Positions 7,345 through 32,000 of a DNA stretch of 32,000 bases are shown piece after piece. The notes beneath the pieces were generated by a model. That model ran no database searches. It was given only the letters and a program-made list of their open reading frames with translations, and was not told the DNA's origin. The first letter of the stretch is position 1. Every line of letters begins with the position of its first letter. Made by a program: the position numbers and the translations under genes. The stretch covers positions 570,001-602,000 of the forward strand of contig OZ245049.1 in NCBI GenBank assembly GCA_965224465.1, in the 5' to 3' direction. The DNA comes from Flavobacteriaceae bacterium (GTDB taxonomy: Bacteria > Bacteroidota > Bacteroidia > Flavobacteriales > Flavobacteriaceae).

Positions 7345-7348
7345 GCGC

Positions 7349-13343: not shown

Positions 13344-13350
13344 GAATATA

Positions 13351-15126: not shown

Positions 15127-15138
15127 AATTTGCGGTTT

Positions 15139-16123: not shown

Positions 16124-16149
16124 ATCTAACGCTATTTAAAAGAAAATTT

Positions 16150-17502: not shown

Positions 17503-17527
17503 ATAGTATCTATAAATGTATAAAAAA

Positions 17528-17558
17528 GGCTGTTTACAATTTAAACAGCCTTTTTTTT
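17528..17558 (+). terminator. Rho-independent terminator after tssC
   Basis: GGCTGTTTAcaattTAAACAGCC is a 9-bp perfect stem with a 5-nt loop, followed by T8. Confidence 0.8.
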
Positions 17559-17583
17559 GTTTAACTTCTACAATAAAAAAATA

Positions 17584-18222
17584 ATGAAAAAAATATTTAT
17601 TTTCTATTCTTTACTTCTTTTTGTATGTCATGATAATTATGCACAGGACAGTAATAACCTATGGATTATTGGATTAGGAACAAATGCGGTAGATTTCTAC
17701 CCAACAAATGAATCTGAAACTATTACAGGAAACCAAGCAGGTTTAGGAAGTCAACTTTTTAATGTAAACGATCACTGGAACAAATTTGGTCTTCCAAAAA
17801 TTAATATTACGCGATACCTTTCAAAACGTTTTTCTGCTGACATTTCTTTTGCTATGAATAAAATAAAAATAATTGGAGAACATAAAATTGATGAAATCTC
17901 GTACCAAACTATTGACGCAAGGCTGCAATACAGTTTTTTAAAAGACAACTATAAATTCTCTCCTAATATCTCTATTGGAATAGGGCGCACTTGGCTTGAC
18001 AATATAGGATCAGAAACCCTTAATGGAGGTTTAGGAATTACGTATTGGTTTACTGAACAGTTTGGTATAAACGGGATGGCAAGTTACAAATACACTCTCG
18101 GTAAACAGCCTAAGATATTACAGCATTTATGCTACTCCGCAAGTATTGTATTTAGATTTGGCAGTAAAAAAGAAGATATAAACTGCGAAGACTGCCTAAA
18201 AAAAGAAGAGCTCGAACAGTAA
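17584..18222 (+). CDS. small outer-membrane beta-barrel (porin/OmpW-like) protein
   Basis: Start taken at MKKIFIFYSLLLFVCHDNYA/QD (signal peptide); the ORF track begins 27 nt earlier. It has alternating amphipathic beta-strand patterns and aromatic-rich segments (GLGITYWFTEQFGINGMASYKY, YSASIVFRFG). Confidence 0.6.
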   Translation: MKKIFIFYSLLLFVCHDNYAQDSNNLWIIGLGTNAVDFYPTNESETITGNQAGLGSQLFNVNDHWNKFGLPKINITRYLSKRFSADISFAMNKIKIIGEHKIDEISYQTIDARLQYSFLKDNYKFSPNISIGIGRTWLDNIGSETLNGGLGITYWFTEQFGINGMASYKYTLGKQPKILQHLCYSASIVFRFGSKKEDINCEDCLKKEELEQ

Positions 18223-18249
18223 TACCAACTAATTTTCCAAGCGACGGTT

Positions 18250-18470
18250 TAAAAATGAAATTATAAATAGTATAAATCCAAGTTGTAATTACTGTTCAAT
18301 CCTATTAAAAAAGGAATACGAAAAAGCACCATACCCAGATTATAGTGTAGAAACATCTCTCTTAAAACAGCAGAAATCTACCCTAAAACCATAGAAATGA
18401 ACAATAAAAAATAGTTGGATCGCTTGAAAATTTAAAAAATTTGAATATTCTTAACAAAAACCAATACATA
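18250..18470 (+). pseudogene. decayed 3' end of a tyrosine recombinase gene (remnant copy A)
   Basis: Homologous at roughly 70% by eye to 30719-30915. It reads ...KTAEIYPKTIE...IVGSLENL with stops and frameshifts, corresponding to the ...TTEIYTH......SPLD.L C-terminus of Bacteroidota integrases. Confidence 0.45.
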
Positions 18471-18542
18471 CCCCGAAACTATTATAGACATAACGGAAAT
18501 AACGTCAAGTTTTGGAAGTTTATTGATGATATACGGGTGTTG
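18471..18542 (+). repeat. conserved 72-nt cassette leader, copy A
   Basis: CCCCGAAACTATTATAGACATAACGGAAATAACGTCAAGTTTTGGAAGTTTATTGATGATATACGGGTGTTG. It is 70/72 identical to 30916-30987, and similarity stops exactly after GGTGTTG in both copies. Confidence 0.85.
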
Positions 18543-19515
18543 TGTGCAAGTTAACAGCAGAACGTATAAATCAAATTCATCAAAAATCAATAATATGGGA
18601 AATCCAAGTATAAGATTTGGAAAATATACACCAACAGATAGAAAAGCAACTAAAGAATGTAAATATATACCACCTCCAATTCCACAAGGAACTTGTTCGT
18701 ATTATGAATCAAGATTTACTAATTTTATGAAAAGACATTCTGACTGCCAACACGAGCCCCCAGTTTACTATTATGGTCCATTATCAGAAATGGGAGAAAT
18801 CAGTGCAATGGAAAAACTTAAAATTAGACTTTCTACTTTACCTATTCATTTAGCTGTTATTGGACAAACTGATGGACAAAGAGCTGTAAAAGATGCAGAA
18901 GAAGAGAGAATGAAAAAGGACATGAATTCTCCTTATAAATACGAACGAAAAGAGAAAACACTTGTTCCTCGACCAGAAGAAAGCTATGGATATAAATATT
19001 GCGAATTATTTACTAATGAGCTAATGCCTAAGTTAACTATTGATGGCAAAAATTGGTTAAAACAAGTCAAATTGGATTTACAAAAACTAATGGAAAAAGG
19101 TGTTGTAAGTTTAAATTATGTATCTGAATTAAGTAAAGATTATAATATTATAAACGGATTTATTAAAAAAGGACAATCGGAATCAGAATCAGAAAAAATT
19201 ATTGAAAAATTCTACACTAATATTGAACTCAATAATACTCGCTTTCAAAGTTTTGCCTTTGCTACACATCCAGATGCTTATAATCCTAAAAAAATGAGTG
19301 AATTACCCGCACACGACCTTATACGAATTATGTTTACTCCTGATTTTAAAGAATTTAGTAAACCCGAAACATGGGATCAAATAAAAACTATGGTGAAAAA
19401 TATGGATTATGGAACAATTACAGAATCGACATGGGAAAAATTAAAAAAAGACACTAATGAAATAATAGAAAAAGGGGCTAAAGAATTAAAAAAATACTGG
19501 GATGAAATATTTTAG
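18526..19515 (+). CDS. hypothetical cytoplasmic-type protein (no signal peptide); start ambiguous (18526 inside the leader, or 18595 MGNPSIRF)
   Basis: Long ORF with no recognisable family. Cys/His-containing segments: CKYIPPPIPQGTCSYYESRF, HSDCQHEPP, YGYKYCELF, FATHPDAY. Its 3' end overlaps the next gene by 14 nt. Confidence 0.7.
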   Translation: MIYGCCVQVNSRTYKSNSSKINNMGNPSIRFGKYTPTDRKATKECKYIPPPIPQGTCSYYESRFTNFMKRHSDCQHEPPVYYYGPLSEMGEISAMEKLKIRLSTLPIHLAVIGQTDGQRAVKDAEEERMKKDMNSPYKYERKEKTLVPRPEESYGYKYCELFTNELMPKLTIDGKNWLKQVKLDLQKLMEKGVVSLNYVSELSKDYNIINGFIKKGQSESESEKIIEKFYTNIELNNTRFQSFAFATHPDAYNPKKMSELPAHDLIRIMFTPDFKEFSKPETWDQIKTMVKNMDYGTITESTWEKLKKDTNEIIEKGAKELKKYWDEIF

Positions 19516-20629
19516 AATAATAATAATAATAATAGCTGCCTTAATAATTATAAATACAGTATCCTGCCAAAACAAAACTAAAGAAAACATGAATTGGAAA
19601 ATAATAGATTTTAACAAAATATCTGGAGAAACTTTAATGGACGAATATTTTAATTCAATAAATAAATATAAGTTCAATCAAATCCTTACTCTTAATGAAA
19701 ACCATATTATTTTATTAGGTGATAACAGTGGAGATAGAAATGAAGAATACTTACCAAAAGAAAGCGAAGCAATTGTATTTGTTTCAATAGATGGAGGTGA
19801 AACTTTATTAAAACATAATTTAGGAAAAGGTTCTTTGACAAATGCTATTTCTGTTGATAATGATCTTTTTTTAGTAAATAATCTTTCAGTAGGTCGTGAA
19901 TTTTCTAGTCAACTAATCAAATCTGATCCTTTTTTAAAAGAATGGGAAGTAGTAAATGAATTTAAGACTGAAAAAATAATTGGTGTTCGCTTTTACTCTT
20001 CCAATATTGGAATAGCGAGTTTTTTTCATAGAAACCCCATTAATCAAGAATTAATAGACGAAGAAAAATACACCCTTGACGGTGGGAGGAATTGGTCAAA
20101 AATTATAAATAGCAATAACAAAGGATTTACATATTCTAGATTTATTTCTTCCGAAGAAATTGAATGCATAGAAAATAATAAACTTGTTAAATTTAATTTC
20201 ATCACAGGAGAGAAAGAAATTATAACAGAACAAATAGCTCCTAGAGGCTACAAATGCTTAGGGTATTATGAAGATACAAAAACTAAAGAATATTATACGT
20301 TCTTAGAAAACATAAATAATAAAACAGATTACTCAATAAAATATATTAACACACAAGAAATAATTAAATTGCCAAAAGGAACAGATGATATAGAAGTTTA
20401 TGGAAACTATCTCCACGCAATGGTTAAAGATGGAATATACTATAATTATGTTTGGAGTGATGACAAAGGTAAAACATGGAATACAGAAGAATTAAGAGAT
20501 TTCTTTGTAGACCATAGGCCTATTGAATACTATGGAGAAGGCTATGTTTATGCTTTTGTGACTTCTTTTAAAGGTAAAAAATCTGAAAAAGGAGGAAGGT
20601 TTGCAATAAGAAAACCTGCAAATAACTAA
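19502..20629 (+). CDS. lipoprotein with BNR/Asp-box repeats (beta-propeller-like)
   Basis: Lipoprotein signal MKYFRIIIIIIAALIIINTVSC/QNK. Three Asp-box-like motifs are present: SIDGGETL, TLDGGRNWS and SDDKGKTWN. Confidence 0.75.
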   Translation: MKYFRIIIIIIAALIIINTVSCQNKTKENMNWKIIDFNKISGETLMDEYFNSINKYKFNQILTLNENHIILLGDNSGDRNEEYLPKESEAIVFVSIDGGETLLKHNLGKGSLTNAISVDNDLFLVNNLSVGREFSSQLIKSDPFLKEWEVVNEFKTEKIIGVRFYSSNIGIASFFHRNPINQELIDEEKYTLDGGRNWSKIINSNNKGFTYSRFISSEEIECIENNKLVKFNFITGEKEIITEQIAPRGYKCLGYYEDTKTKEYYTFLENINNKTDYSIKYINTQEIIKLPKGTDDIEVYGNYLHAMVKDGIYYNYVWSDDKGKTWNTEELRDFFVDHRPIEYYGEGYVYAFVTSFKGKKSEKGGRFAIRKPANN

Positions 20630-20674
20630 GCATATGGCCTGCCGATAGTCCAAGGCTATATGCATTGTTGACTA
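20621..20674 (+). repeat. cassette 3' boundary motif copy 1 (AATAACTAAG - hairpin - TGTTGACTA)
   Basis: AATAAC contains the stop codon of the lipoprotein gene. An internal hairpin pairs GCATATGGCC (20630-39) with GGCTATATGC (20654-63), 9 Watson-Crick pairs plus 1 G:T. TGTTGACTA lies at 20666-74. Confidence 0.6.
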
Positions 20675-20871
20675 ATCCCATCCTACGATAAGGGGGGAAT
20701 TGCCGTTTTCTATTCTGTTTTTATTGTTTATTTAAGTGGAGTCCGCCTAATTTTATAGGTATATTATATAATTCCTTAAAAAAAATGCTCTTTATGAAGC
20801 TTTTTGACGCATTTTTCATAGAAATGTTGAATATAGGCATCAGTTATCTAAGCGAATTCTGTGTGAATTTG

Positions 20872-22020
20872 CTACTTAGTGTATTTCTGTATCTTACGCT
20901 TTGCAATCGCTTTAAAATTATCTGGTGGACCGCGATTATCAAAGCTTAATAGCGTAATTAATTTTCCTTTTTTACAGCTTGGACAAGTATTTAAAACCGT
21001 TTTTTCTACTTCAATAGTTGCTACTAGATAATCAAGTTCCTTATCCGATAATTGCTGTTGTAATTGACCTAATTTTTCCTTTTTCCAACTAGCACTTAAA
21101 TATCCATAATGCCTAATTCTGGTAAATCCTTTGGGCAAAACATGATTTTGAAATCGTTTTATAAATTCTCTAGTACTTAACGTTTGTATCTTTTTTTTGC
21201 CATTGTTTCTATAATCTTTTAAACTAAATGTTACTTTTTTATGTTCTCTATCAATGTTTAAGATACGGTGGTTACTTATCGCTATTTTATGCGTGTATCT
21301 CCCTAAATATTCAATCACATTTTCGGGCTTACCAAACGGCGCTTTGGTATAAACCACCCAGTTTTTCTTGAATAGTTTATCGTATATTTCTTGCCCAATC
21401 CCTGGTAATTTCTTTCTTAGTTTAGATACAAAAACCCCTCTAAACTTCGCGCTCATAGCTTCTACACTAAATAAAAAATCATCTTTACCACTTCCCTTTT
21501 TCCAATAACCAGCCTTGCTAACTCCTCCTTTTGGCACAATACAATGTAAATGAGGATGCAAACTTAAATTCTGACCCCAAGTATGTAATATTGCGATCAT
21601 TCCTAATTTTGCACCTAAGTGTTTTGGATTATTGCCAAAAGCAGATAGTGTCTCCCAAACACTATCAAACAATATTTTATAAAGCACTTTAGGCTGCGAT
21701 AAAGCGATAGGATTTAAATGATGTGGTATCGTAAAAACCACATGAAAATAGGGAACGGGTAAAAGCTCCTTGCTTCTGGCAGCAACCCACTCATGTTGTT
21801 TATGTCCTTGACAAGTTGGACAATGTCTATTCCTGCATGAATTAAATTGTAAATGCAATTTATTACAGTTCAAACACCAGTCTAAATGACCTCCCAATTC
21901 TTTAGTTCTACATTTCCTAAGTGCATGTAATGTCCTTGAATGCCAGGATGTATTTGACCATTTATCAATACTATCCTGCTCTATATTTAGAATATCTGCA
22001 ACAGTATGTTTTGCAAACAC
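20872..22020 (-). CDS. IS91-family (Y2 HUH, rolling-circle) transposase
   Basis: 382 aa with an N-terminal zinc-binding region (CLNCNK...CRNRHCPTCQGHKQHEW). HUH motif HPHLHCIV; two-tyrosine motif YLGRYTHKIAISNHRI. Confidence 0.9.
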   Translation of the reverse strand: MFAKHTVADILNIEQDSIDKWSNTSWHSRTLHALRKCRTKELGGHLDWCLNCNKLHLQFNSCRNRHCPTCQGHKQHEWVAARSKELLPVPYFHVVFTIPHHLNPIALSQPKVLYKILFDSVWETLSAFGNNPKHLGAKLGMIAILHTWGQNLSLHPHLHCIVPKGGVSKAGYWKKGSGKDDFLFSVEAMSAKFRGVFVSKLRKKLPGIGQEIYDKLFKKNWVVYTKAPFGKPENVIEYLGRYTHKIAISNHRILNIDREHKKVTFSLKDYRNNGKKKIQTLSTREFIKRFQNHVLPKGFTRIRHYGYLSASWKKEKLGQLQQQLSDKELDYLVATIEVEKTVLNTCPSCKKGKLITLLSFDNRGPPDNFKAIAKRKIQKYTK

Positions 22021-22862
22021 TATTTTTTGTATAGCGTATCTAAAGGACTAAATTTTATAGAACTACCAGTATTTGCAACGTGTAAATAAATCATTGTTGT
22101 TTCAATACGTGCATGTCCCAATAGTTCCTTTAAACTAATGATATTTAAACCGTCTTCTAATAAATGGGTGGCATAAGAATGGCGTAATGTATGTGCTGTA
22201 TACTTTTTTTTCGTTGCTACCTTTGAGCGAGATTCTTTTAGTATCCAATGAATTCCGTTTACCGTAAATGCACGCGATAAACCATCTTTTGTTACTTGAC
22301 TATTGAATAAATATTTAACGGGATTTTCTGTCTGTAAATACTGTTGTAATCCTCGCGCCAAATGATCGCTTAAAGGGACATAACGGTCTGTTCTTCCTTT
22401 TTGTTTTTTTACGAATACAGTTTTTCGTTCAAAATCAACATCTGATTGCAATAAATTACAAAGCTCATAACTTCGTAATCCACAACCGTACAACATGCCC
22501 ATAATTAACCGATGTTTCAGGTATTTGGGGCTAGACAATATTTGACGAACCTCTGACTTGTTTAACACAATTGGCAAGTCTTTTTGGCCTTTAATCTCTG
22601 GTAATTTAATTAGTTTTTGCTTCATTCCCAAAGCTTTGTAGGCAGCTCGAAGACCAAAAACAATGTGTTTGAAAAAACTATCCGATGGTGTTTTATGAAG
22701 GTTTTTACAGTGTAGTAAATAGTCATTAATAGCCTCCTCATCTAATAACTCTGGACTAATTTTATAATGAAGGCATAAATGAGATAAGCAACGTAAATAG
22801 TTCGTTAATGTACTTGTTGCTTTGCCATTTATAACAAAGCTCCTACTCAATTTTGAAACCAA
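22020..22862 (-). CDS. tyrosine recombinase/integrase co-transcribed with the IS91-family transposase; 5' end possibly frameshifted
   Basis: Catalytic region GLRSYEL...HTLRHSYATHLLEDG...LLGHARIETTMIYLHV...SPLDTL. Its stop overlaps the transposase start. The track start is a TTG; the same frame is open to 22928, and an ATG at 22927 is one base out of frame across an A8 run. Confidence 0.85.
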   Translation of the reverse strand: MVSKLSRSFVINGKATSTLTNYLRCLSHLCLHYKISPELLDEEAINDYLLHCKNLHKTPSDSFFKHIVFGLRAAYKALGMKQKLIKLPEIKGQKDLPIVLNKSEVRQILSSPKYLKHRLIMGMLYGCGLRSYELCNLLQSDVDFERKTVFVKKQKGRTDRYVPLSDHLARGLQQYLQTENPVKYLFNSQVTKDGLSRAFTVNGIHWILKESRSKVATKKKYTAHTLRHSYATHLLEDGLNIISLKELLGHARIETTMIYLHVANTGSSIKFSPLDTLYKK

Positions 22863-23058
22863 ATTACTGAATTCTGGTACAGATTCTAAAGCAGTTTCCT
22901 GAATTGTTTTACTTTTTTTTGAAACATATTATCTAATTTTATTATGAGTTTCAAATGTACTATATTTACATAAAGAGCATAAAAGCTTCCGAGGCACTAG
23001 GATTAGTTCAATCGAGTAGACGGGTGACAACTGAATAGTTGCCACTGCGCCTCTCACA

Positions 23059-23089
23059 CCACCGTACGTACGGGTCTCGTATACGGCGG
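23059..23089 (-). ncRNA. group II intron domain V (short, CGC triad)
   Basis: Minus strand CCGCCGUAU-ACG-AGACC-CGU-AC-GUACGGUGG. It is a 31-nt hairpin with the AC bulge, and CGC replaces AGC at the catalytic triad position, as in class C introns. Confidence 0.7.
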
Positions 23090-23090
23090 T

Positions 23091-23640
23091 TCAAAAAATT
23101 GAAGTCTGCGTATTATTAATGTAATCTATCAAAGGTTTATACCCTTTTCGTACAAGTCTAGATTTGGTAATGGTAGTCTTTAAAATTGGACTTTGGGCTA
23201 CTGCCCATCCTCCCATTCTGGTTCTACTCCAAGCGTATGCTTGTCCATTCTCTATTCCTAATCTGATTAGGTTTTTACGTTTTCGTTCGAGTTTTTTCCA
23301 ATCGTGCCAAATACAATATCGCAACCGATTTCTTATCCACTCATCTAGCTTTTTAACTTTTGCATAGATGTTGGTTAAACGGTAATTATTCATCCAGCCT
23401 CGGCAGACTTGATTAAGCCGTTCTAAACGTTCCGACAATGACATTGGTTTGGTTTTCTTGGTAATACTCTTTAGGTTACGCTTAAACTTTGCCCAACTTT
23501 TCTTTGCTACTACTAGTATATATTGTCCTTTTACTCCCTTTTTGTAGACTGGCACAAAGCCATGTCCTAGTAACTCAAAGTTTACGGGTCTACGAATGCC
23601 ACTTTTGGCTTTATTTATAGGTAGTTTTAATTTGTCCTTA
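23091..23640 (-). pseudogene. group II intron RT/maturase, C-terminal fragment (thumb/X domain)
   Basis: KLKLPINKAKSGIRRPVNFELLGHGF...RLNQVCRGWMNNYRL (maturase X-domain signature). There is no endonuclease domain. It is separated from the RT part by the IS30 element. Confidence 0.85.
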
Positions 23641-24757
23641 AATTCAACTAATAAACGCAACTTTTCGATTTGATTCTATGATGGTTATATTTTCAAAACA
23701 GAAAAGTAGGAAAACCTACCTTTCTTGTCTTGATGGATATGTATCTTACGGTCTCAAATCTCGAAAAAAGAAGTTGTATGAAACACATCACCCAAGCGCA
23801 AAGATACACAATTTGTTGCATGTTAAAACAAGGTTATAAACAGGTTGAGATAGCAGCTGCTATAGGAAAAGACAAGTCTGTTATTAGCAAAGAGATTAAG
23901 CGTAATTCAGACAAAAGAAATGGAGTTTACAAGCATGAATTAGCCCAAAAAAAGTATGCTAAACGTCATAAAGAAAAGCCTAAAAGAAAACGCTTTACAG
24001 AAGATATTCAACAAGCAATAGAGTTGTTATTGCGAGACGATTATAGTCCTGAGCAAGTAGTTGGTGTCCTAAAAAAACAAGGTAAAGAAACGGTGTCTAT
24101 TGAGCGTATATATCAGCATATTAGGGAAGACAAGAGGAATGATGGTGATTTACATACACACCTTCGCAGACAGGGAAGGAGATATAGAAAACGTGGCTCA
24201 TCAAAGGATTCTAGAGGGGTTATAAAGAATCGTATTAGTATAGAACAACGCCCTGAAGTTGTTGAACAAAGAAATCGATTTGGAGATTTAGAGGTCGATT
24301 TAATCATAGGTAAAAACCATAATCAAGCCATACTTACCGTAAATGATAGAGCTTCTGGAATGCTTAAAATGAAAAAAGTAAGCTCTAAAGAAGCAGTTGT
24401 TGTCACTAAAGCTATCAATGAAATATTAGAAGACTGGAAGCCTTATCTACATACTATAACAGCTGATAATGGAAAAGAATTTGCAGGCCATGAGCAGGTT
24501 GCAGAAAATTTATGTATTGATTACTTTTTTGCGCATCCATATCACTCTTGGGAAAGAGGATCTAACGAAAATTTAAATGGTTTGATTAGACAATATTTTG
24601 CCAAAGGAAGTGACTTTACAAACCTAACAGATCAAAGAATCAAAGAGGTAGAAACAAAATTAAATAACAGACCTAGGAAGAGACATAAATATCAAAACCC
24701 TATATTTGTAATGGAACAATTATTATTTAACTAAAAGTTGCGTTTGTGACTTGAATT
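23641..24757 (+). mobile_element. IS30-family insertion sequence (about 1.12 kb) inside the intron ORF
   Basis: Terminal inverted repeats are AATTCAACTAATAAACGCAACTTTT (23641-65) and AAAAGTTGCGTTTGTGACTTGAATT (24733-57). It interrupts the RT reading frame after ...FVFLKD. Exact ends are +/- a few bp and the target duplication is not resolved. Confidence 0.85.
23778..24734 (+). CDS. IS30-family DDE transposase
   Basis: N-terminal HTH ITQAQRYTICCMLKQGYKQVEIAAAIGKDKSVISKEIKRN. DDE region LEVDLIIG...TITADNGKEF...SWERGSNENLNGLIRQYF. Start taken at MKHITQ; the track ORF starts 48 nt earlier at a TTG. Confidence 0.9.
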   Translation: MKHITQAQRYTICCMLKQGYKQVEIAAAIGKDKSVISKEIKRNSDKRNGVYKHELAQKKYAKRHKEKPKRKRFTEDIQQAIELLLRDDYSPEQVVGVLKKQGKETVSIERIYQHIREDKRNDGDLHTHLRRQGRRYRKRGSSKDSRGVIKNRISIEQRPEVVEQRNRFGDLEVDLIIGKNHNQAILTVNDRASGMLKMKKVSSKEAVVVTKAINEILEDWKPYLHTITADNGKEFAGHEQVAENLCIDYFFAHPYHSWERGSNENLNGLIRQYFAKGSDFTNLTDQRIKEVETKLNNRPRKRHKYQNPIFVMEQLLFN

Positions 24758-24761
24758 CAGC

Positions 24762-25499
24762 ATCTTTTAAGAAGACAAACAACGTATTCCCTATTTGTTT
24801 CGCCTCACGTTTGGTCTTTGCGTAAATGCTAAAATCATCTGCGTAGCGGACGTACCGTAAACCCATTCTTTTCATTTCTTTATCCAAGACGTCTAACATT
24901 ATGTTAGATAGTAAGGGACTAATTGGGCTTCCTTGCGGGATTCCTTTTCTACGCTTTTGAAGTTTCCCATTTATTAAAATAGGAACTCTAAGCCATTTTC
25001 GGATTAAACGCATGGTTGTTGGACATTTTACCCTGTGGTAAATAAGTTGTAGTAGGATACAATGGTCCACTTCATCAAAGAACCCTTTAAGGTCAATATC
25101 TACAATATCTTGGTAACCATTATTGATATACTGTTGAGCTTGTAGTACTGCTTTTTGAATGTTCTTTTGTGGTCTAAACCCAAAACTAAGTGGCTCAAAA
25201 TCAAATTCGAACTGAACCATTAATTGTTGGCTTACCGCTTGCTGTAGCCATCTATCTACTACTGTTGGGATTCCTAAAAGTCTGGTTTTACCCTTGCCTT
25301 TTGGAATGCTTACTCCTAAGATTGAGTTTGGAACATAGCTATTCTTACGGATCGTTGTTAGTATGTCTGAACGGTTTTCAACTATATAAGTTGAAAGTTC
25401 CGTTACTTTCATACCATCAACTCCGCTAGCTCCTTTATTTCGCTTCACTTGACGTGCTGCTTTAAAAAGGTTGGTAGCTTCTAGTACTTTGTCAATCAT
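24762..25499 (-). pseudogene. group II intron RT/maturase, N-terminal fragment (RT domains 0-7)
   Basis: KNKGASGVDGM, RLLGIPTVVDRWLQQAV, DIDLKGFFDEVDH, GIPQGSPISPLLSNIML and VRYADDFSIY (YADD). The last 12 codons of the track ORF are read-through into the IS30 end. Confidence 0.85.
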
Positions 25500-26142
25500 A
25501 GGTTAAATAATTCGGGTACTCCTGTTGGTTTAAAACTAGGCTAGCTAGGCATCCTAATTGAATTTCAACGTAATTTAATGTTCTGTCCTTCCCTATTTGT
25601 GAGACCATCTGAGGTCTTTCCTCAACTCGTTTCCCATAGGTACTATGACGTCTGCTGACTTCTCCATAGAACCAACTCCTGGCTTTGGAGACCTCCCCAG
25701 GTAATGACATCTTCTTTCACTCAATCACTGCCGTATCTACATAACTACCCTTTTAGTATTCTTTTGGGCGTTGCAATGATGTGTTTACTTACCCAAGTAA
25801 TTATACCTCTGTATACGGTTTCTGTTCGTCAGTACCGAGCTTTGTAGTCTCGCTTCCTTCAGATAAAACCTCACGGTTTTCACCCTTGCGACTTACTAAT
25901 GTTTCAGAACGTTACTCCTGCACATAAGGGACTTGCACCCTCTAGATTAATTAACTACCTTTCCGTAGTTAAAAGATGCCCATGCTGGGCACACACACGG
26001 TATATAAAAAATAGCAGTTAAGTGCAAACTTCAAAGGTTTGTGCTTTTCTACTATTTTTGTTTAAAATTGAAAGTAATAGCATATTTATTCTGCTACTTT
26101 TCATATACCAACACGTTACCAGTAATTTAACAAAAAAAAACA

Positions 26143-26937
26143 ATGAAAATAAATACAACCATTTTATGTTTAATATTGACTCAATTTGTATTTGGTCAAA
26201 CAGAAATTTCGAAAGAAAAATATAAAATTAATTTAGATGCAAAAATAGGAGAAAGAATCTATGTGAAAGATTCTATAGGAAATATTTTAAAAAATGGTGA
26301 ATATCTATTCAAAATGCCCGATGGAAGAGTTAAATTATCTTTTTGGTTCTCTATTGAAGATTCTGGAGAAATTAATGGTGATGTGAAATTAAATATTGGA
26401 GATAAAATAGATAATCAACTATTAGAATTATACAAAGTAAAAAATGGTATCGTAAAAAAAATAGAACAATTTGACCAAAAAAGAAAGTTCCTAGAAACAG
26501 AAATTTTTATAAGTGGAGATACCGTAATAAAAAGGAATTATAAATTAAACAAGCTACTTTACTATGAAAAGAAAGAAATAAAAGGAAAAGAAATTTACAA
26601 ATACTCTTGTGATAACTATTATGAAGAAGACTACATTGATAAGTGTACTAAAACCGATTTTATAGAAGGAATAATAGAGGAAATTCTAAACGGGAATGTA
26701 TTAAGCAGAACTAAAACAAAAAATTTACCTTTTAACATAAAAAAAATAGTAGAAAATTTCAACCCTGAAGAAAGCGTCAAAAAAATAATAGTTCATACTG
26801 ATAAAGTAATAAAAACCATATATAAAAATGGTAGTTACAAAACAGAAAAACCTATAAAAGGTGGCGTATTCGAAAAAATTTACAATAAAAAGGGGATACT
26901 AATTGAATCCGGAGAAGTATATGATATCGGTTTTTAA
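26143..26937 (+). CDS. secreted hypothetical protein, weakly MORN-variant/YwqK-like repeats
   Basis: Signal peptide MKINTTILCLILTQFVFG/QT. Repeated G-x-aromatic/hydrophobic beta-hairpin-like segments are present (KNGEYLFKMPDGRVKL, KNGIVKKIEQFD, GGVFEKIYNKKGILIESGEVYD). The family call is tentative. Confidence 0.65.
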   Translation: MKINTTILCLILTQFVFGQTEISKEKYKINLDAKIGERIYVKDSIGNILKNGEYLFKMPDGRVKLSFWFSIEDSGEINGDVKLNIGDKIDNQLLELYKVKNGIVKKIEQFDQKRKFLETEIFISGDTVIKRNYKLNKLLYYEKKEIKGKEIYKYSCDNYYEEDYIDKCTKTDFIEGIIEEILNGNVLSRTKTKNLPFNIKKIVENFNPEESVKKIIVHTDKVIKTIYKNGSYKTEKPIKGGVFEKIYNKKGILIESGEVYDIGF

Positions 26938-26973
26938 CCAGATAAAATCATGAATAACAAAAAAACTACAGGT

Positions 26974-27015
26974 AATAACTAAGTGCTCGTGCGGTGCGTA
27001 GGGGACTGTTGGCTA
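26974..27015 (+). repeat. cassette 3' boundary motif copy 2 (AATAACTAAG ... TGTTGGCTA)
   Basis: AATAACTAAGTGCTCGTGCGGTGCGTAGG matches copies 3 and 4. It has a shorter spacer and no obvious hairpin. Confidence 0.55.
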
Positions 27016-27148
27016 TTATGGTCGGACCATGCCACTGATTATGGTCAAACAGTGCCACTCTAAAAGATATGCAATTATAAGAAAAATATTCTTATTCCCC
27101 GCTGCGCAAAGTCTCCCGACTTTGAGGGTTGTTTTTATGTGTTACTTT

Positions 27149-28563
27149 GGGACTGTAAACTCAACTCTGTCTGAATAAAAAAAAGTATTAACTTTATTCA
27201 AACAGAAAACATGACAAAAGACGAGTTAGCCAACATTGAAAAAAAGGCATTGGATCAATTATTATCAGGAAAAAGTTTATTCGGAAAAGAAGGTGCCTTT
27301 GCTCCTTTAATGAAACAATTTCTTGAGAAAGCATTGGAAGCAGAAATGGAATCACACCTTAGTGAAGAGGAACGTTCTAAAGGGAATAAACGTAACGGAA
27401 AGGGCAAAAAGACTGTTAAAACTAGTATTGGTAGTTTTGAAATAAGCACGCCAGCGGATAGAAATAGTAGTTTCGAGCCTGTTCTGATAAAAAAGCGTCA
27501 AACCATTTTAGCAGATAATTTATCAGATAAGATCATTGGATTATATGGACTAGGAATGAGCTTACGCGATATTTCTGGTCATATAAAAGAGATGTATGAT
27601 ACAGATATATCACACACTGTTTTAAGTCAAATTACAGATAAGATCATACCAGATATAAAACAATGGCAAAGTCGTCCAATAGAACAGATGTACTGCATTG
27701 TTTGGCTTGACGCTATGCATTACAAGGTAAAAGTAGACGGTAAAATACAACACAAAGCACTTTACAATGTTTTAGGAGTAAATAAAGAAGGGATCAAAGA
27801 GGTTTTAGGAATGTATATTTCAGAAAGTGAAGGTGCAAATTTTTGGCTTCAAGTATTGACAGACCTTAATAACAGAGGGCTTAAGGATATCCTAATTGCC
27901 TGTACAGACAACTTAAAAGGGTTTTCAGAAGCTATCTTGAGTGTCTTTCCTAAAACACAAATTCAAAAGTGTATTGTTCATCAAATTCGTAATTCTTTAA
28001 AGTATATAGCTTCCAAAGACCAAAAAGAATTTATTCGAGATTTAAAGCTTGTTTACAAGGCTGTTAATAAAGATATTGCTGAGTTGGAGTTATTGAAATT
28101 AGAAGAAAAATGGGGAGAAAAATACCCTGTAGTTTTAGAAAGTTGGAACCGTAATTGGGAAGAGTTATCTCAGTTTTTTCAGTATACAGAACCTATCAGA
28201 AAAATAATTTACACAACAAATGCAGTAGAAGGTTTTCATAGACAGGTAAGAAAAGTAACTAAAACAAAAGGGGCTTTTACCAGTGATATGGCACTATTGA
28301 AGCTTGTTTACTTAGCAACAAAAAATATCGAAAAAAAATGGACAAACCCTTTACATAATTGGTGCTTGACAATTCAACAATTATATATTAAATTTGAAGA
28401 TCGAATAACGTTGGATTTACATAAAAACGGAAGCAATTCGTGACGCTAGCCGCTAGGGCTCATTTTAAAATAGTTCGATTTTTAAAGCAGCCTTATGAAG
28501 AGAAAATCGAACTATTTTAAAACGTAGAAAAAAATAAGCAGACAGAGTTTAAATTACACAACC
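27149..28563 (+). mobile_element. IS256-family insertion sequence (1415 bp) with 8-bp target site duplication
   Basis: IRs are GGGACTGTAAACTCAACTCTGTCTG (27149-73) and CAGACAGAGTTTAAATTACACAACC (28539-63), 18/25 matching. It is flanked by GTTACTTT at 27141-48 and 28564-71. The uninterrupted paralogous site ...TATGTGTTACTTTTTCAATATTC is present at 28915-28937. Confidence 0.92.
27211..28443 (+). CDS. IS256-family (Mutator-like) DDE transposase
   Basis: 410 aa with IVWLDAMHYKV, ACTDNLKGF, CIVHQIRNSLKY and TTNAVEGFHRQVRK, which are typical IS256/Transposase_mut signatures. Confidence 0.93.
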   Translation: MTKDELANIEKKALDQLLSGKSLFGKEGAFAPLMKQFLEKALEAEMESHLSEEERSKGNKRNGKGKKTVKTSIGSFEISTPADRNSSFEPVLIKKRQTILADNLSDKIIGLYGLGMSLRDISGHIKEMYDTDISHTVLSQITDKIIPDIKQWQSRPIEQMYCIVWLDAMHYKVKVDGKIQHKALYNVLGVNKEGIKEVLGMYISESEGANFWLQVLTDLNNRGLKDILIACTDNLKGFSEAILSVFPKTQIQKCIVHQIRNSLKYIASKDQKEFIRDLKLVYKAVNKDIAELELLKLEEKWGEKYPVVLESWNRNWEELSQFFQYTEPIRKIIYTTNAVEGFHRQVRKVTKTKGAFTSDMALLKLVYLATKNIEKKWTNPLHNWCLTIQQLYIKFEDRITLDLHKNGSNS

Positions 28564-28705
28564 GTTACTTTTTCAATATTCATTTTTATTCTCGATTCAA
28601 TTTCTTAATCGTTGATTTTTTTAATACTTCAATTACTGGATTGTCCACAAGTATCACTGGAAGCAATCCTTCATTGTTTATATAATTTGTTGCACTTGAA
28701 TACGT

Positions 28706-28939
28706 TTAATGCTCCGATTTTTCCACTACATCTGCCTTTACAGAGTTCAAATGAATATCATCTAATTTTGACCACATAAACTTTACCGAATATATTTCTT
28801 CTGCATGATTGCCATATTGCCAGAATTGATGATTTTTATTATGGGTTTTAATAGCCATTTTAAAGTGTTCTAGCATCCAGCTGCGCAAAGTCTCCCGACT
28901 TTGAGGGTTGTTTTTATGTGTTACTTTTTCAATATTCAT
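28706..28939 (-). pseudogene. truncated Y1 (IS200/IS605- or RAYT-like) transposase fragment, tandem copy 1
   Basis: QSRETLRSWMLEHFK...FWQYGNHAEEIYS...DDIHLNSVKADVVEKSEH. This is the C-terminal half of the family only (..FWQ..yhD..I....l.YIH.NPVKAGLV..), with no HUH region. Its start codon is created by the duplication junction. Confidence 0.6.
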
Positions 28940-28941
28940 TT

Positions 28942-29277
28942 TTATTCTCGATTCAATTTCTTAATCGTTGATTTTTTTAATACTTCAATTACTGGATTGT
29001 CCACAAGTATCACTGGAAGCAATCCTTCATTGTTTATATAATTTATTGCACTTGAACACGTATAATGCTCAATTTTTTCCACTACACCTGCCTTTACAGG
29101 TTTCAAATGAATATCATCTAATTTTGACCACATAAACTTTACCGAATATATTTCTTCTGCATGATTGCCATATTGCCAGAATTGATGATTTTTATTATGG
29201 GTTTTAATAGCCATTTTAAAGTGTTCTAGCATCCAGCTGCGCAAAGTCTCCCGACTTTGAGCTGTATATGTAAACAT
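28942..29277 (-). pseudogene. truncated Y1 (IS200/IS605- or RAYT-like) transposase fragment, tandem copy 2
   Basis: 111 aa with FWQYGNHAEEIYSVKFMWSKLDDIHLKPVKAGVVEKIEHYTCSSAINY. The N-terminal HUH half is missing. Confidence 0.6.
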
Positions 29278-29342
29278 TCATGAGAGCTACGCAGTTATTC
29301 ACTCCCTTTTGTTTTTTTAGAGGTGTTCCTGAGAGCTACGCA

Positions 29343-29443
29343 GTTCAGAACGTAACTCCTGCGCATGAAGGATGGAGGACTTGCAGCCTCTAGATTAATT
29401 AACTACCTTTCCGTAGTTAAAAACGCGCATGCTGGGCACACAC
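29343..29443 (-). mobile_element. orphan 5' fragment (about 100 nt) of the same group II intron
   Basis: It aligns by eye with one indel to 25903-25996: TTCAGAACGT.ACTCCTGC.CAT.A.GGACTTGCA.CCTCTAGATTAATTAACTACCTTTCCGTAGTTAAAA..GC.CATGCTGGGCACACAC. It ends at the same GTGTGTGCCC 5' terminus. Confidence 0.8.
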
Positions 29444-29476
29444 AATAATTAGGACAAAACTCAAGAAAATATAATT

Positions 29477-30403
29477 ATGATAAGAATTCAATTGGTAATT
29501 GTATTAATTTTAATTTCAAATTTAATGTTGGCTCAAAATGAGAATGAAGTATTGCAATTTGACAAAATATTAAACCAATTTCACAATGTACGAGACTTTT
29601 GTATTTCAAGTAATGGGAATGAAGCATTTATTACTCTACAAAGCCCTAATGGAAAAATTTCTCAGTTAGCTACAATTAAAAAGAAAAAAAATGAATGGAC
29701 AGAACCGAAATTATTACCCTTCTGCGATTCTAATATGTATTTAGAGCCCTTCTTATCTTACACTGGGAATCGACTATTTTTTGTTTCTAATAGACCTTTA
29801 AGTGATTCAATTAGTCGTAAAAAGAACTTTGATATATGGTATGTTGACAGAAATAATAGTAATGAAAAATGGTCTGAACCTAAAAACATTGGAAATCCAA
29901 TTAATTCTGAATTAGATGAGTTTTACCCTTCAGTTAGCGAAAACAACAATCTATATTTTACAATGGACTCGCCAAATGGATTAGGAAAAGATGATATTTA
30001 TTTTTGTAAATGGGAAGTAAATAAATATTTAGCGCCTGTTCTTTTAAATGAAAATATTAATAGTAATGGGTATGAATTTAATGCTTTTATCTCTAAAAAA
30101 GAGGATTTCCTATTATTTACAAAATACAATAAAAAAGGAGGACAAGGAAGTGGCGATTTATACATTTCAAAAAAAAATATTGAGGGAAAATGGCAAAAAT
30201 CGATAAATTTAGACACACCCATTAATACAAAATATATGGAATATTGTCCTTTTTATGATGAGAAAAATGAAATCTTATATTTTACAAGTAAGAGACAAAA
30301 TAGTTCGCCTAAAAAATTTAAAGATATTTCTGATTTTAAAAAATATATTGAAGAGAGCGAAAACGGGTTGAGTAAAATTTATATGATTTCTATAAAATTA
30401 TAA
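29477..30403 (+). CDS. secreted TolB/PD40-like beta-propeller repeat protein
   Basis: Signal peptide MIRIQLVIVLILISNLMLA/QN. Repeated PD40-type segments are present: EPFLSYTGNRLFFVSNRP, EFYPSVSENNNLYFTMDSPNGLGKDDIYF, EFNAFISKKEDFLLFTKY and EYCPFYDEKNEILYFTSKR. Confidence 0.7.
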   Translation: MIRIQLVIVLILISNLMLAQNENEVLQFDKILNQFHNVRDFCISSNGNEAFITLQSPNGKISQLATIKKKKNEWTEPKLLPFCDSNMYLEPFLSYTGNRLFFVSNRPLSDSISRKKNFDIWYVDRNNSNEKWSEPKNIGNPINSELDEFYPSVSENNNLYFTMDSPNGLGKDDIYFCKWEVNKYLAPVLLNENINSNGYEFNAFISKKEDFLLFTKYNKKGGQGSGDLYISKKNIEGKWQKSINLDTPINTKYMEYCPFYDEKNEILYFTSKRQNSSPKKFKDISDFKKYIEESENGLSKIYMISIKL

Positions 30404-30413
30404 TAGAAACTAT

Positions 30414-30987
30414 AATAACAGGATGTTCGTGCGATGCATAGCGCCCATCATAAACATCCTGTTGACTATACCGGCTCAAAAGATGATGCTATAGGGATTG
30501 TGTGACTTAATTAAGAGGCTATCGACAAAAACCTAAATAGGTACCACCTGTTTTTAGATACGGATACGCATTGGTCAGTAGTGTTTTGGCTTGCGTTTCC
30601 CAGTACGTGGCTACGTTTGTTTATTTTCGGTTATTATTACATGCTTTTATTCGTTGTAACCAATAAGCAGCTGGGGCCTCTTCTGCTAAACAGATAGCCT
30701 GTTTTGAGTTTTCCTATCTTATAGTCGTTCTATTTTTCAACAACGCTAGAATGCAAAATAAACTATTTATATCAGTTATTTTGGATTGTAATTTTATTAG
30801 GTTATGGTTCTCCAAAAACCACAGAGATATACACCAAGACCATCGAAATAAAAAAATAGTTGGACCGCTTGAAAATTTAAAAAAATTGAATACTTTTATA
30901 AAAAAACAACAGACACCCCGGAACTATTATAGACATAACGGAAATAACGTCAAGTTTTGGAAGTTTATTGATGATATATGGGTGTTG
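30414..30987 (+). repeat. inter-cassette spacer, copy 1: boundary motif 3, 347-bp GC-richer segment, recombinase 3' remnant B (30719-30880) and 72-nt leader B (30916-30987)
   Basis: AATAAC lies at 30414, a hairpin pairs CAGGATGTT (30419-27) with AACATCCTG (30453-61), and TGTTGACTA lies at 30460-68. Segment 30434-30780 is 100% identical to 31654-32000. The remnant reads L*SFYFSTTLECKINYLYQLFWIVILLGYGSPKTTEIYT, then after a frameshift KIVGPLENL. Confidence 0.85.
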
Positions 30988-31009
30988 AGCTTAATAAAAA
31001 ACAAAAAAA

Positions 31010-31123
31010 ATGGAAGTAAAAACAGGGTTCATATTAGTTGCGATTTTTTCAATACTTGCAGGAAGTTATGCTATTTATGCGTCATATAAAAACTCACACA
31101 AAAACTATTCTCAAAAAAATTAA
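31010..31123 (+). CDS. small hydrophobic ORF, possibly the frameshifted 5' part of the LRR gene
   Basis: ATG 22 nt after the leader end gives MEVKTGFILVAIFSILAGSYAIYASYKNSHKNYSQKN (one TM helix). The next ORF's frame is open from 31090 but has no ATG. Confidence 0.3.
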   Translation: MEVKTGFILVAIFSILAGSYAIYASYKNSHKNYSQKN

Positions 31124-31170
31124 AACATAGATTAGTTCAAAACATACTTGGAATAAATGGAGCAAGAGTC

Positions 31171-31629
31171 TTGTATGGATTTTTAGGATTGGGATTAATT
31201 TTGTTCGGTACTTTTATATTGTTTCAATTTTTTGTAACCCCCAAATTAGGTAATGAATATAATAATAAAACGAATCAATTTATCATTTCATCAAGAACAA
31301 TTAATAAAGAAGGATATACTTTAAATTCAAATATTATAACAAATTTAAATCAATTAGAATCAAGAATAAAATTTGGAGGAGAAGAACAATTAAATCAATA
31401 TGTGAAGATTAGTTTTAAGAATAATTATCTCGAAGAAATACCTCAAATAGTTTGGAAAATGAAAAACCTGACAACTATAGATTTAACATATAACAAAATT
31501 GTAAATTTAAACATTGAACAAATTTCCAAAATGGATAGTTTAAAAATAATTGTGTTAAAAAACAACCCTATTACAAAGGAAAATATTAATAAATTAAGGA
31601 AGAAAACAAGTATTGAAATACGATACTAA
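31171..31629 (+). CDS. membrane-anchored leucine-rich-repeat protein (TTG start or frameshifted)
   Basis: TM helix GFLGLGLILFGTFILFQFFV. LRR units: NYLEEIPQIVWKMKNLTTIDLTYNKIVNLNIEQISKMDSLKIIVLKNNPI. Confidence 0.6.
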   Translation: MYGFLGLGLILFGTFILFQFFVTPKLGNEYNNKTNQFIISSRTINKEGYTLNSNIITNLNQLESRIKFGGEEQLNQYVKISFKNNYLEEIPQIVWKMKNLTTIDLTYNKIVNLNIEQISKMDSLKIIVLKNNPITKENINKLRKKTSIEIRY

Positions 31630-31633
31630 GCCT

Positions 31634-32000
31634 AATAACTAAGTGTTCGTGCGGTGCATAGCGCCCATCATAAACATCCTGTTGACTATACCGGCTCAAA
31701 AGATGATGCTATAGGGATTGTGTGACTTAATTAAGAGGCTATCGACAAAAACCTAAATAGGTACCACCTGTTTTTAGATACGGATACGCATTGGTCAGTA
31801 GTGTTTTGGCTTGCGTTTCCCAGTACGTGGCTACGTTTGTTTATTTTCGGTTATTATTACATGCTTTTATTCGTTGTAACCAATAAGCAGCTGGGGCCTC
31901 TTCTGCTAAACAGATAGCCTGTTTTGAGTTTTCCTATCTTATAGTCGTTCTATTTTTCAACAACGCTAGAATGCAAAATAAACTATTTATATCAGTTATT
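31634..32000 (+). repeat. inter-cassette spacer, copy 2 (boundary motif 4 plus the identical 347-bp segment), truncated by the window edge
   Basis: Offset of exactly 1220 bp from copy 1. It is identical from 31654 to the window end. Confidence 0.9.

Follow-up and report, generated by a model that had tools for sequence, protein, structure and literature searches.

Evidence for an accessory, integron-like gene-cassette array, probably frozen, next to a T6SS-iii block in a Flavobacteriaceae bacterium

In sedentary chromosomal integrons and in CALINs (clusters of attC sites without an integrase), co-oriented, mostly single-gene cassettes start at a G|TT boundary and each end in an imperfect palindrome framed ..AAC / GTT.., cassettes turn over between related strains, and junctions harbour antisense group II introns and IS elements. 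Classical integrons show no conservation past the crossover, nor is any module of spacer, recombinase remnant and leader reiterated between their cassettes. Within Bacteroidetes, IntegronFinder 2.0 found integrase-only elements alone, apart from a single complete integron, in Salinibacter (PMC9024848). In rAID-1 of gut Bacteroidales, a tyrosine recombinase lies upstream of co-oriented short genes, with repetitive intergenic motifs that have been called integron-like (10.1101/471110; PMC12247911). Group IIC-attC introns such as S.ma.I2 sit antisense in cassette arrays and carry outward promoters (PMC3001079).

The window analysed here, a stretch of 32,000 nucleotides, probably holds from 18.3 to 32.0 kb an accessory gene-cassette array of integron-like type, situated where a T6SS-iii block ends, with its final gene on one side and the adjoining housekeeping genes on the other. 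Because its co-oriented cassettes are joined by shared non-coding elements of recombination type, its architecture resembles that of both integrons and rAID, and because no intact array recombinase was seen we take it to be probably frozen and CALIN-like. It has all the features listed above for integrons and CALINs, and related arrays have 120-200-nt attC-like sites with covariation. It differs from them in its host class (Flavobacteriia), in its sites, a short, sequence-conserved family unrecognised by our model of the long attC-like sites, in a recombinase remnant that is co-oriented with the cassettes and, with a leader, reiterated between them, and in that no integron-type integrase was found here.

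Boundary sites, leader and recombinase remnant

A cassette would consist of one or two plus-strand genes and end in a site of ~50-65 nt with attC-like layout (element L, a short attC-like hairpin), and two cassettes would start at a leader, element R, with the crossover taken as its last bases, GGGTG|TTG. By analogy with integrons, cassettes would once have been moved in and out at the G|TT boxes by a tyrosine recombinase; we infer the chemistry of that recombination, which recombinase was involved, and that R served as attI. What is observed is the site family and its occurrence in other genomes, the coinciding cassette boundaries, the exchange of cassettes between related arrays and the lack of the array in relatives.

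17557-18222, plus: OMP-like gene, last of the T6SS-iii block; array inserted downstream
18346-18414, plus: decayed C-terminus of a tyrosine recombinase, copy 1 (translation ending SLKTAEIYPKTIEMNNKK, then stop)
18470-18542, plus: R copy 1 (core 18490-18542), taken as the 5' boundary of cassette 1
20618-20681, plus: short attC-like site a (E 1.8e-5, all modelled pairs standard)
26971-27022, plus: short attC-like site b, a shortened variant (E 3.3e-4)
30411-30475, plus: short attC-like site c, start of element L (E 4.2e-12)
30476-30914, plus: ORF-less spacer X together with recombinase remnant copy 2
30725-30859, plus: recombinase remnant copy 2 (translation ending LLGYGSPKTTEIYTKTIEIKK, then stop)
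30915-30987, plus: R copy 2, ending GGGTG|TTGAGC
31631-31695, plus: short attC-like site d (E 6.5e-16)
31696-32000, plus: second copy of spacer X, running off the window

Intergenic DNA after the OMP-like gene still resembles, by eye, that of a relative to ~18310. The motif AATAAC-N(25-55)-TGTTGRC occurs at 20621, 26974, 30414 and 31634 (chance expectation in the 32-kb window, 0.11), with every match on the plus strand and 0-37 nt past a plus-strand stop codon, and TGTTGRCTA gives five matches versus 0.48 expected. An overlapping alternative start of the longer motif lies at 26953.

Likeness to attC was judged by two covariance models built in this analysis, R1 for long and R2 for short sites. 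Model R2, trained solely on seven copies from other genomes and run over the entire window on both strands with filters off, returned exactly four significant matches (the E values listed above), one behind each plus-strand cassette, with the next-best match at E 0.37, and so confirmed the 3' boundary motif that the preliminary description had counted four times. In the seven training copies 90% of cells were paired, compared with 31-50% when partners were slid, and G-C to C-G swaps separated lineages. The sites are laid out as (A)ATAAC, unpaired TAAG, a short stem, a loop, the second half of the stem, unpaired TCCT and GTTGACTA. [quoted passage not shown] Site c forms a perfect 11-bp stem (fold z -2.5 on the plus and -2.9 on the minus strand). 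A generic AAC-stem-GTT scan performed no better than on shuffles. Conservation of L runs on ~90 nt beyond the presumed crossover.

As first described, the leader is far better conserved than the remnant adjoining it: the two R copies are identical at 71/73 positions, versus just 84% for the whole repeat (18358-18542 and 30809-30987). Copy 1, which ends GGGTG|TTG and holds two ATAAC direct repeats, is 92% identical over 63 nt to external contig L001, and copy 2 matches the same contig at 100% across a 52-nt core. R has no significant fold (z +0.3). Since it lies just 3' of the decayed end of a co-oriented tyrosine recombinase, it is read as attI-like or, alternatively, as the site of a pseudogene cassette; copy 1 would be an attI-like or short attC-like site marking the start of cassette 1.

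A remnant with tyrosine-recombinase box II precedes each R copy, copy 1 being homologous to 30809-30914. The box-II regular expression has one match in the window and 0 in 300 shuffles, and the evidence stays at motif level because Pfam misses the remnant. A third copy past the window edge is plausible, given that 31633-32000 repeats 30413-30780 at 98.6% identity and runs off the window. The remnant had been proposed to recur with every cassette; two copies are seen and a third is plausible, but just two junctions out of four have remnant and leader. A portion of X shares 76% identity with positions 2335-2476 of contig L007, and X, remnant and R together form the module reiterated between cassettes.

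Related arrays and array-less relatives

Outside the window, L and R occur around unrelated genes on three contigs (L001/L006, L002 and L007), and wherever they were found in other Flavobacteriaceae contigs they bracket variable genes; in the collections scanned, the R core occurs inside arrays only. Over junction, cassette and L, L006 and L007 are 95.6% identical, whereas their upstream cassettes differ, and the break falls exactly at the start of L. These arrays also hold long attC-like sites of 120-200 nt, in which 89% of cells in 16 pairs are paired, against 24-36% when slid, with compensatory changes in nine pairs; 0/500 shuffles were as good. Model R1 recovers a long site withheld from its training (E 8e-9) but does not fit the window sites, the best match, at site a, being on the wrong strand (13 bits, E 0.65). 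A cassette of 209 aa turns up both between R and L and, elsewhere, flanked by long attC-like sites, and its boundaries are identical in the two settings, its homology running from G|TTGTAGTGC to CACTACAA just past the stop codon.

Relatives L003 and L005 have the T6SS block, with OMP-like homologues at 68-77% identity, and lack the array: their OMP-like gene is directly followed by thioredoxin-like, PNP and LpxK genes on the minus strand. Recurrence around variable genes, turnover at the element boundary and array-less relatives therefore uphold an accessory array of co-oriented cassettes, as proposed at the outset, and argue against dispersed IS or MITE ends and against a conserved syntenic locus, the two outcomes named beforehand as contrary to it. 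At the start of the array, window and L001 alike have the R half alone. No intact recombinase was seen with any L/R array, and the arrays end beyond the DNA examined.

Cassette cargo and alternative origins

18595-19515, plus: cassette 1 gene 1, 306 aa, no signal peptide, polymorphic-toxin-type domain
19502-20629, plus: cassette 1 gene 2, BNR-repeat lipoprotein with lipoprotein-like N-terminus
26143-26937, plus: cassette 2, secreted 264-aa protein
29477-30403, plus: cassette 3, secreted PD40/TolB-like beta-propeller (PD40 4.4e-9)
31171-31629, plus: cassette 4, small membrane LRR protein (LRR_8 3.5e-7)

The first gene of cassette 1, previously noted simply as encoding a protein without signal peptide, is more specifically that of a polymorphic-toxin-domain protein, with 316 representative homologues, its domain being C-terminal in Rhs + Tox-PAAR-like, DUF6443, VgrG-PAAR, eCIS-core and DUF4280 proteins. 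It is probably a T6SS effector, and the lipoprotein (weak BNR match in Pfam), whose gene overlaps it by 14 nt, is its putative cognate immunity protein; because the domain is fused elsewhere to Rhs, VgrG and PAAR proteins, cassette 1 probably encodes an effector together with its immunity protein and not an orphan. The propeller (also with partial PorE and CHU_0125 matches) and the LRR protein are as first described, but a MORN/YwqK identity for cassette 2 was not borne out, since Pfam/NCBIfam searches returned nothing but noise at E<=1. The remaining cassettes encode repeat proteins that are secreted or membrane-bound.

The main alternative is an acquired interbacterial defence array like rAID-1, consisting mostly of orphan immunity genes directed against T6SS toxins, which a XerD-like recombinase would have gathered, and functionally coupled to the adjacent T6SS. 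The published rAID-1 layout (10.1101/471110; PMC12247911), from the same phylum, is indeed matched in a co-oriented upstream recombinase, short co-oriented genes and conserved, repetitive intergenic motifs, and the toxin-type domain of cassette 1, the secreted, lipoprotein or membrane repeat proteins, and the PoNi immunity and ankyrin genes of a related Maribacter array (L015) point the same way. Yet the likeness to the rAID recombinase is one of description, that of the window being present as repeated remnants only, and the host belongs to another order and habitat (marine Flavobacteriaceae). Moreover, searches detected no Pfam/NCBIfam immunity or MORN/YwqK family and no PDB relative for any window cassette, so that the orphan immunity genes initially envisaged, like a link to the T6SS, are largely unsupported; also at variance with rAID-1, one cassette has a toxin domain. 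The T6SS-related look appears confined to cassette 1. Sister arrays adjoin unrelated genes, away from any T6SS, so being fused to the T6SS is not supported as a trait of such arrays. Their genes are of mixed kinds (GmrSD-like, TPR, beta-lactamase fold, AraC, ParE), and relatives have the T6SS block without the array; both speak against the defence reading. We consider this alternative unlikely.

It is improbable that each L..R junction is instead a decayed mobile element (a small tyrosine-recombinase element or derived MITE) inserted repeatedly between ordinary neighbours, with no cassette system. Conserved L..R ends enclosing a variable middle, 440 to ~1080 nt long and with gene remnants, and one module reiterated across most junctions, would suit such an element, but the intervening genes are unrelated from array to array and missing from relatives, near-identical arrays break at the element edge, the 209-aa gene keeps its boundaries between long attC-like sites, the R core is confined to arrays, and L..R has, by reading, neither terminal inverted repeats nor target duplications.

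Mobile DNA in the junctions

In the integron-like reading, mobile DNA, transposase remnants included, would have piled up in the junctions later. The preliminary description had placed four kinds there, and IS91/integrase, IS256 and a group II intron that contains IS30 do all lie in junctions.

~20834-22862, minus: IS91-family element, Y2 transposase and Xer-like tyrosine recombinase
~23008-25997, minus: group II intron, antisense to the cassettes (RVT_1 and GIIM)
23641-24757, plus: IS30-family insertion within the intron (HTH_38 + rve transposase)
27149-28563, plus: IS256-family insertion (Transposase_mut 5.4e-98)
28564-29275, minus: RAYT C-terminal remnants, two tandem 356-nt units (97% tandem repeat)
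29344-29444, minus: group II intron 5'-end fragment, ~100 nt, 87% identical to 25903-25997

The Y2 transposase (20872-22020, minus; Y2_Tnp 3.9e-54, Zn_Tnp_IS91) and the intact 280-aa Xer-like recombinase (22020-22862, minus; Phage_integrase 1.3e-34) recur as a gene pair on Tenacibaculum finnmarkense plasmids at 75-78%. The latter, the sole intact recombinase in the window, is part of an element of IS91 type and does not bear the signature of integron integrases, scoring 145 bits, in two stretches, against a cut-off of 265 with model TIGR02249. IS256 has an 8-bp target duplication, GTTACTTT, and its target was the RAYT-remnant repeat, a partial unit of which lies at 27083-27148. This second, different remnant (NF047646, E 1.9e-7, model positions 92-144 of 146; REP-associated tyrosine, Y1/HUH, transposase) had been overlooked beside that of the recombinase. 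That the boundary motifs, short imperfect palindromes, are REP-type sequences mobilised by a RAYT with remnants at 28.6-29.3 kb is highly improbable, as they are single, on one strand and each right after a stop codon, neither form inverted pairs nor flank the RAYT remnant, and occur as the same family in arrays without any RAYT.

The intron (Rfam D1-D4 at 25614-25880, domain V/VI at 23011-23091) has its RT/maturase ORF split by IS30, whose 25-nt inverted repeats lie at 23641-23665 and 24733-24757. Its 5' end precedes the start codon of cassette 2 by 145 nt, and the antisense 5' fragment precedes cassette 3 by 32 nt. Both thus sit, as group IIC-attC introns do, antisense and immediately upstream of the next cassette gene, although the intron is typed to group II level only and neither insertion is flanked by a recognisable attC-like site. 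By analogy, the two 5' ends may supply outward promoters to cassettes 2 and 3.

The same sites are present in other marine Flavobacteriaceae, a group in which integrons are essentially undescribed.

Junction elements of the window array

Behind the T6SS-iii genes, a run of plus-strand genes forms four cassettes, the first consisting of two overlapping genes.

Features of the array and its 5′ flank
5′ of the array: tssB/tssC (TssC, 742 bits)
17557–18222: OMP-like gene, after tssB/tssC and followed by five plus-strand genes
18595–19515, plus strand: 306-aa protein without signal peptide (cassette 1)
19502–20629, plus strand: BNR lipoprotein, overlapping the gene of the 306-aa protein (cassette 1)
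20872–22862, minus strand: IS91-family Y2 transposase and 280-aa tyrosine recombinase
~23008–25997, minus strand: group II intron, interrupted by IS30
23641–24757: IS30, inside the group II intron
26143–26937, plus strand: secreted protein (cassette 2)
28564–29275 and 27083–27148, minus strand: a little over two tandem copies of a 356-nt unit that encodes the C-terminus of a RAYT (REP-associated tyrosine transposase)
27149–28563: IS256, with target duplication GTTACTTT
29344–29444: second intron 5′-end fragment, 100 nt
29477–30403, plus strand: PD40/TolB-like protein (cassette 3)
31171–31629, plus strand: membrane LRR protein (cassette 4)

The preliminary description had singled out three junction elements, all of which we recovered: a boundary motif, AATAAC..TGTTGRC, present four times in the window (chance expectation, 0.11); a near-identical leader beside a diverged remnant, the repeat 18358–18542/30809–30987 being 84% identical overall and 71/73 in its last 73 nt; and two C-terminal remnants of a tyrosine recombinase, at 30725–30859 (+), ending LLGYGSPKTTEIYTKTIEIKK-stop, and at 18346–18414 (+), ending KTAEIYPKTIEMNNKK-stop. 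The boundary motif is present at all four junctions; the remnant, said to be repeated per cassette, occurs together with the leader at only two of the four. Both remnant readings correspond to the box-II/tyrosine motif of tyrosine recombinases and lie just 5′ of the near-identical last 73 nt of the repeat, and a box-II regular expression matched once in the window and in none of 300 shuffles. Pfam gave no match on the remnant, nor on the longest external junction translated in six frames, and a homologue search with the 44-aa remnant found nothing. The segment 30413–30780 is moreover repeated at 31633–32000 (98.6%), the second copy continuing past the window edge. Two other identifications were ruled out: the RAYT remnant is on the opposite strand and of a different family from the recombinase remnant, and the intron 5′ end is a repeat (25903–25997/29344–29444) separate from the 72-nt leader.

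The boundary motif opens a short hairpin element, here termed L, found 3′ of cassettes. A covariance model (R2) trained only on L hairpins of other contigs (L001, L002, L007 and the Tenacibaculum contig L008) retrieved exactly four sites in the window, all on the plus strand (a, 20618–20681; b, 26971–27022; c, 30411–30475; d, 31631–31695), and nothing further at E<0.3. Their layout is AAC, four unpaired nt, a 5-bp stem, loop, stem, four unpaired nt and GTTGACTA, the stem being TGTTC/GAACA in most copies, TCTTC/GAAGA in Tenacibaculum and GCATATGGCC/GGCTATATGC in site a; pairing and some covariation are observed. All four show the attC box order (R″(..AAC), L″, L′, R′(GTT..)). A model of the long attC-like sites described below (R1) gave no significant match to them, a generic AAC-stem-GTTKRY scan did not discriminate (three observed versus 2.3 in shuffles), and Rfam held no family for L or R, its extra matches being only spurious miRNA hits to the IS256 terminal hairpin. 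In site c, AGGA (30414–30425, compared with 31634–31645 in site d) replaces the TAAG of other copies, and the stem is then fully complementary to the 3′ TCCT over 11 bp, a 4-nt replacement that seems to be compensatory or templated. Directly 3′ of site b, at 27016–27061, are two direct copies of a 23-nt repeat, ATTATGGTC..TGCCACT, the first of which includes the palindrome GGTCGGACC.

The leader, here termed R, lies 3′ of the recombinase remnant, carries two ATAAC repeats and ends GGGTG|TTG; its folding was not significant. Because R1 fails on the window sites and R lacks a significant fold, we call these sites attC-like, not attC. The order at a complete junction is the short site L, an ORF-less or pseudogene segment (remnant-bearing in the window lineage) and R with a second G|TT box; this L..R module repeats between cargo cassettes, and at the array start, in the window and in L001, the R half is present alone. 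R could be either attI-like, following a recombinase gene, or a site that belongs to a pseudogene cassette. That the whole junction forms one giant hairpin was ruled out, since where L starts and R ends the two are complementary only at AAC/GTT. On the minus strand, the R core of both window copies (18490–18520 and 30935–30965) reads TTGACG-N17-TATAAT, a perfect sigma-70-type promoter sequence directed back at the recombinase remnant, the −10 hexamer of which is not kept in L001. Where the window has its plus-strand remnant, L007 (~2784–3150) and also L001 read YSYSSNIQKTTEIAYILLE-stop on the minus strand, a second box-II-like motif in the opposite orientation that may have arisen by chance or be an inverted remnant. 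When the window integrase was compared with the junctions by tblastn, the only matches were weak and non-colinear, and we took them as noise.

Related arrays, long attC-like sites and cassette boundaries

In 185,579 species genomes, a 26-nt piece of R matched a single contig; a 22-nt piece matched one metagenome contig, and a third contig with L and R was reached through protein look-up. The question had been raised whether leader and boundary motif bracket variable genes elsewhere, and they do so in all three. R lies 5′ of genes unrelated to those of the window in each, its 52-nt core being 100% identical to window copy 2, and L, beginning at the boundary motif and 76–87% identical to the window copies, follows those genes in each, the middle of the L..R junction measuring from ~440 to 1080 nt. 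A scan of viral contigs and plasmids found no L and no R. At the array start of L001 (2600–2816), the interval that separates the flanking Metallophos gene from the first R contains a ~49-nt unit (GGCTCCGCTCAGTGACCTTTGATTT..) repeated in tandem about four times.

One L001 cassette encodes a 209-aa membrane protein with homologues 76–85% identical in several genera, among them Maribacter, Tenacibaculum, Aequorivita and Dokdonia. In the Maribacter contig L015 and in L009 and L011, its gene lies within runs of co-oriented small genes, with junctions that are 120–200-nt imperfect palindromes, bordered by ..ACAAC on one side and GTTGT.. on the other. These long attC-like sites also occur inside the L/R arrays L001, L002 and L007. 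Nine of them align over 16 pairs that are 89% paired, nine with compensatory change; none of 500 shuffles was as good, and slid partners gave 24–36%. A model from eight sites recovered the withheld L001 site at E 8e-9 and found new sites in L011.

Among copies of the 209-aa cassette, homology begins at G|TTGTAGTGC and stops at CACTACAA, 3′ of the stop codon, and these boundaries are identical whether the flanks are long attC-like sites or R and L. Likewise, L006 and L007 are 95.6% identical over junction, cassette and L and have different upstream cassettes, the break coinciding with the start of L. Cassettes as discrete exchangeable units bounded at G|TT were thus found in related arrays (the 209-aa cassette and L006/L007), not on the window's own cassettes. 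At L001 4108–4254, a long attC-like site has a 3′ end, GATATATGGGTGTTG, identical to that of R, a hybrid that a simple crossover at G|TT does not explain.

The accessory genes of contig L011 (1–20621) all share one orientation over more than 20 kb (DJ-1, cyclase, beta-lactamase fold, AraC, peptidase C1, DUF3885, TPM phosphatase, NmrA and ParE), and the contig has at least three families of repeated 115–165-nt junction elements, some with the end AACGTTGGCAAT; it is probably a large cassette array. Within one long attC-like junction of the Maribacter array, an IS110-family (DEDD) transposase gene lies antisense (L015 4166–5586), resembling IS1111-attC elements, which target attC sites.

Cargo, genomic setting and mobile DNA

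The 306-aa protein of cassette 1 belongs to a family of 316 representatives, its domain forming the C-terminus of Rhs and Tox-PAAR-like, DUF6443, VgrG-PAAR, eCIS-core and DUF4280 proteins. This architecture is a polymorphic T6SS toxin signature, making the protein a putative toxin; the lipoprotein gene that overlaps it is the obvious candidate for its immunity gene. Single-sequence AlphaFold prediction of the protein gave too low a confidence to be of use (pLDDT 36). The suggestion that the cassettes are orphan immunity genes found no support, Pfam and NCBIfam scans of the window cassettes returning no immunity family. Cargo of the related arrays is mixed (PoNi immunity, ankyrin, GmrSD-like, TPR, beta-lactamase fold, AraC and ParE), with PoNi found only in the Maribacter array. 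The first cassette of L007 (191–1213) has a weak GmrSD_N (DUF262) match (E 3.5e-5) and would, on that match, be cargo of the anti-phage-defence type.

The array is accessory: in two relatives with the T6SS block, whose OMP-like protein is 68% and 77% identical, thioredoxin-like, PNP and LpxK genes follow directly, with no array, no L and no R at the locus. Fusion to the T6SS, put forward as a feature of the system, did not hold up, since other arrays adjoin unrelated genes (e.g. Metallophos/MksE, sulfate transporter and sulfatase) and T6SS adjacency is therefore not a system property. The T6SS-iii block itself (272–18222; ClpV-like AAA protein, TssN-like, gp25-like, tssB, tssC and OMP-like) is gene-for-gene syntenic with the metagenomic relatives L003 and L005.

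Several mobile elements lie between the cassettes. The complete intron is antisense, with its end 145 nt 5′ of a cassette gene; the 5′ fragment is antisense too, its end 32 nt 5′ of one. Group IIC-attC introns target the bottom strand and bring outward promoters with them (PMC3001079); the window intron and fragment resemble them in antisense orientation and in position just 5′ of the next cassette, and R2 detected no attC-like site at either insertion point. The IS91-family transposase and tyrosine recombinase pair (20834–22826), an independent mobile element, recurs at 75–78% identity on two Tenacibaculum finnmarkense plasmids, which gives a hint of where the source belongs taxonomically. 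The tandem 356-nt units, 97% identical and interrupted by IS256, each code on the minus strand for the C-terminal third of a RAYT (NF047646, E 1.9e-7). In a REP/RAYT system an intact RAYT gene is flanked by REP palindromes, and REPs are dispersed, often as inverted pairs, whereas the window has C-terminal RAYT remnants only and its boundary motifs occur singly, all on the same strand and at gene 3′ ends.

Relation to integrons and rAID-1 arrays

In architecture, the window array matches both integrons/CALINs and the rAID-1 arrays of Bacteroidales. rAID-1 arrays are defined by a XerD-like recombinase at the 5′ end that shares at least 44% identity with BF9343_RS08045 (10.1101/471110), and the recombinase remnant of the window spans only ~45 aa. 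At least two co-directional short downstream genes and conserved intergenic motifs are present as in rAID-1, but homologues of immunity genes, against T6SS toxins or otherwise, do not dominate the cargo, nor is there a G+C skew, the array having 25–40% GC and the T6SS part 27–39% with no clear step.

An integron integrase is recognised as a tyrosine recombinase with the IntI-specific extra domain. None was found adjoining the array in the window, which holds only the decayed C-terminal remnants at 18346–18414 and 30725–30859 and ends before the far end of the array. The intact 280-aa recombinase (22020–22862), part of the IS91-type element, scored 145 bits against TIGR02249, in two stretches, versus a 265-bit cut-off. 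Complete integrons were reported by IntegronFinder 2.0 for no Bacteroidetes other than Salinibacter (PMC9024848). Among the full-text papers searched, none was on integron cassettes in Flavobacteriaceae.

The array is best filed as an integron-like variant, marked by its Flavobacteriaceae host, by a short conserved site family beside long attC-like sites, by a co-oriented recombinase remnant and R reiterated between cassettes, and by a putative T6SS toxin pair as cargo. A bolder proposal, which we hold tentatively and think rather unlikely, is that marine Flavobacteriaceae own an integron-like system in which recombinase and insertion site would together be a cassette-like, G|TT-bounded unit (L hairpin, recombinase, R) reiterated before cargo, a self-propagating ‘mini-integron’ able to sit beside classical long attC-like sites and capture T6SS effector–immunity pairs.

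Integrons are the textbook gene-capture system. To our knowledge they are known almost only from Proteobacteria, and in Bacteroidota we know of no comparable system described other than rAID-1 of gut Bacteroidales, whose recombination sites and mechanism are still open. For the integron-like variant, Flavobacteriaceae now offer concrete conserved sites (the short family L, the 52-nt invariant core of R and long attC-like sites with covariation), together with cassette boundaries that are now defined and a case of cassette exchange in nature, so that the acting recombinase, strand and base become directly testable. Moreover, a putative T6SS-type toxin and lipoprotein pair is packaged as a cassette beside a T6SS, which suggests a possible exchange route for effector repertoires.
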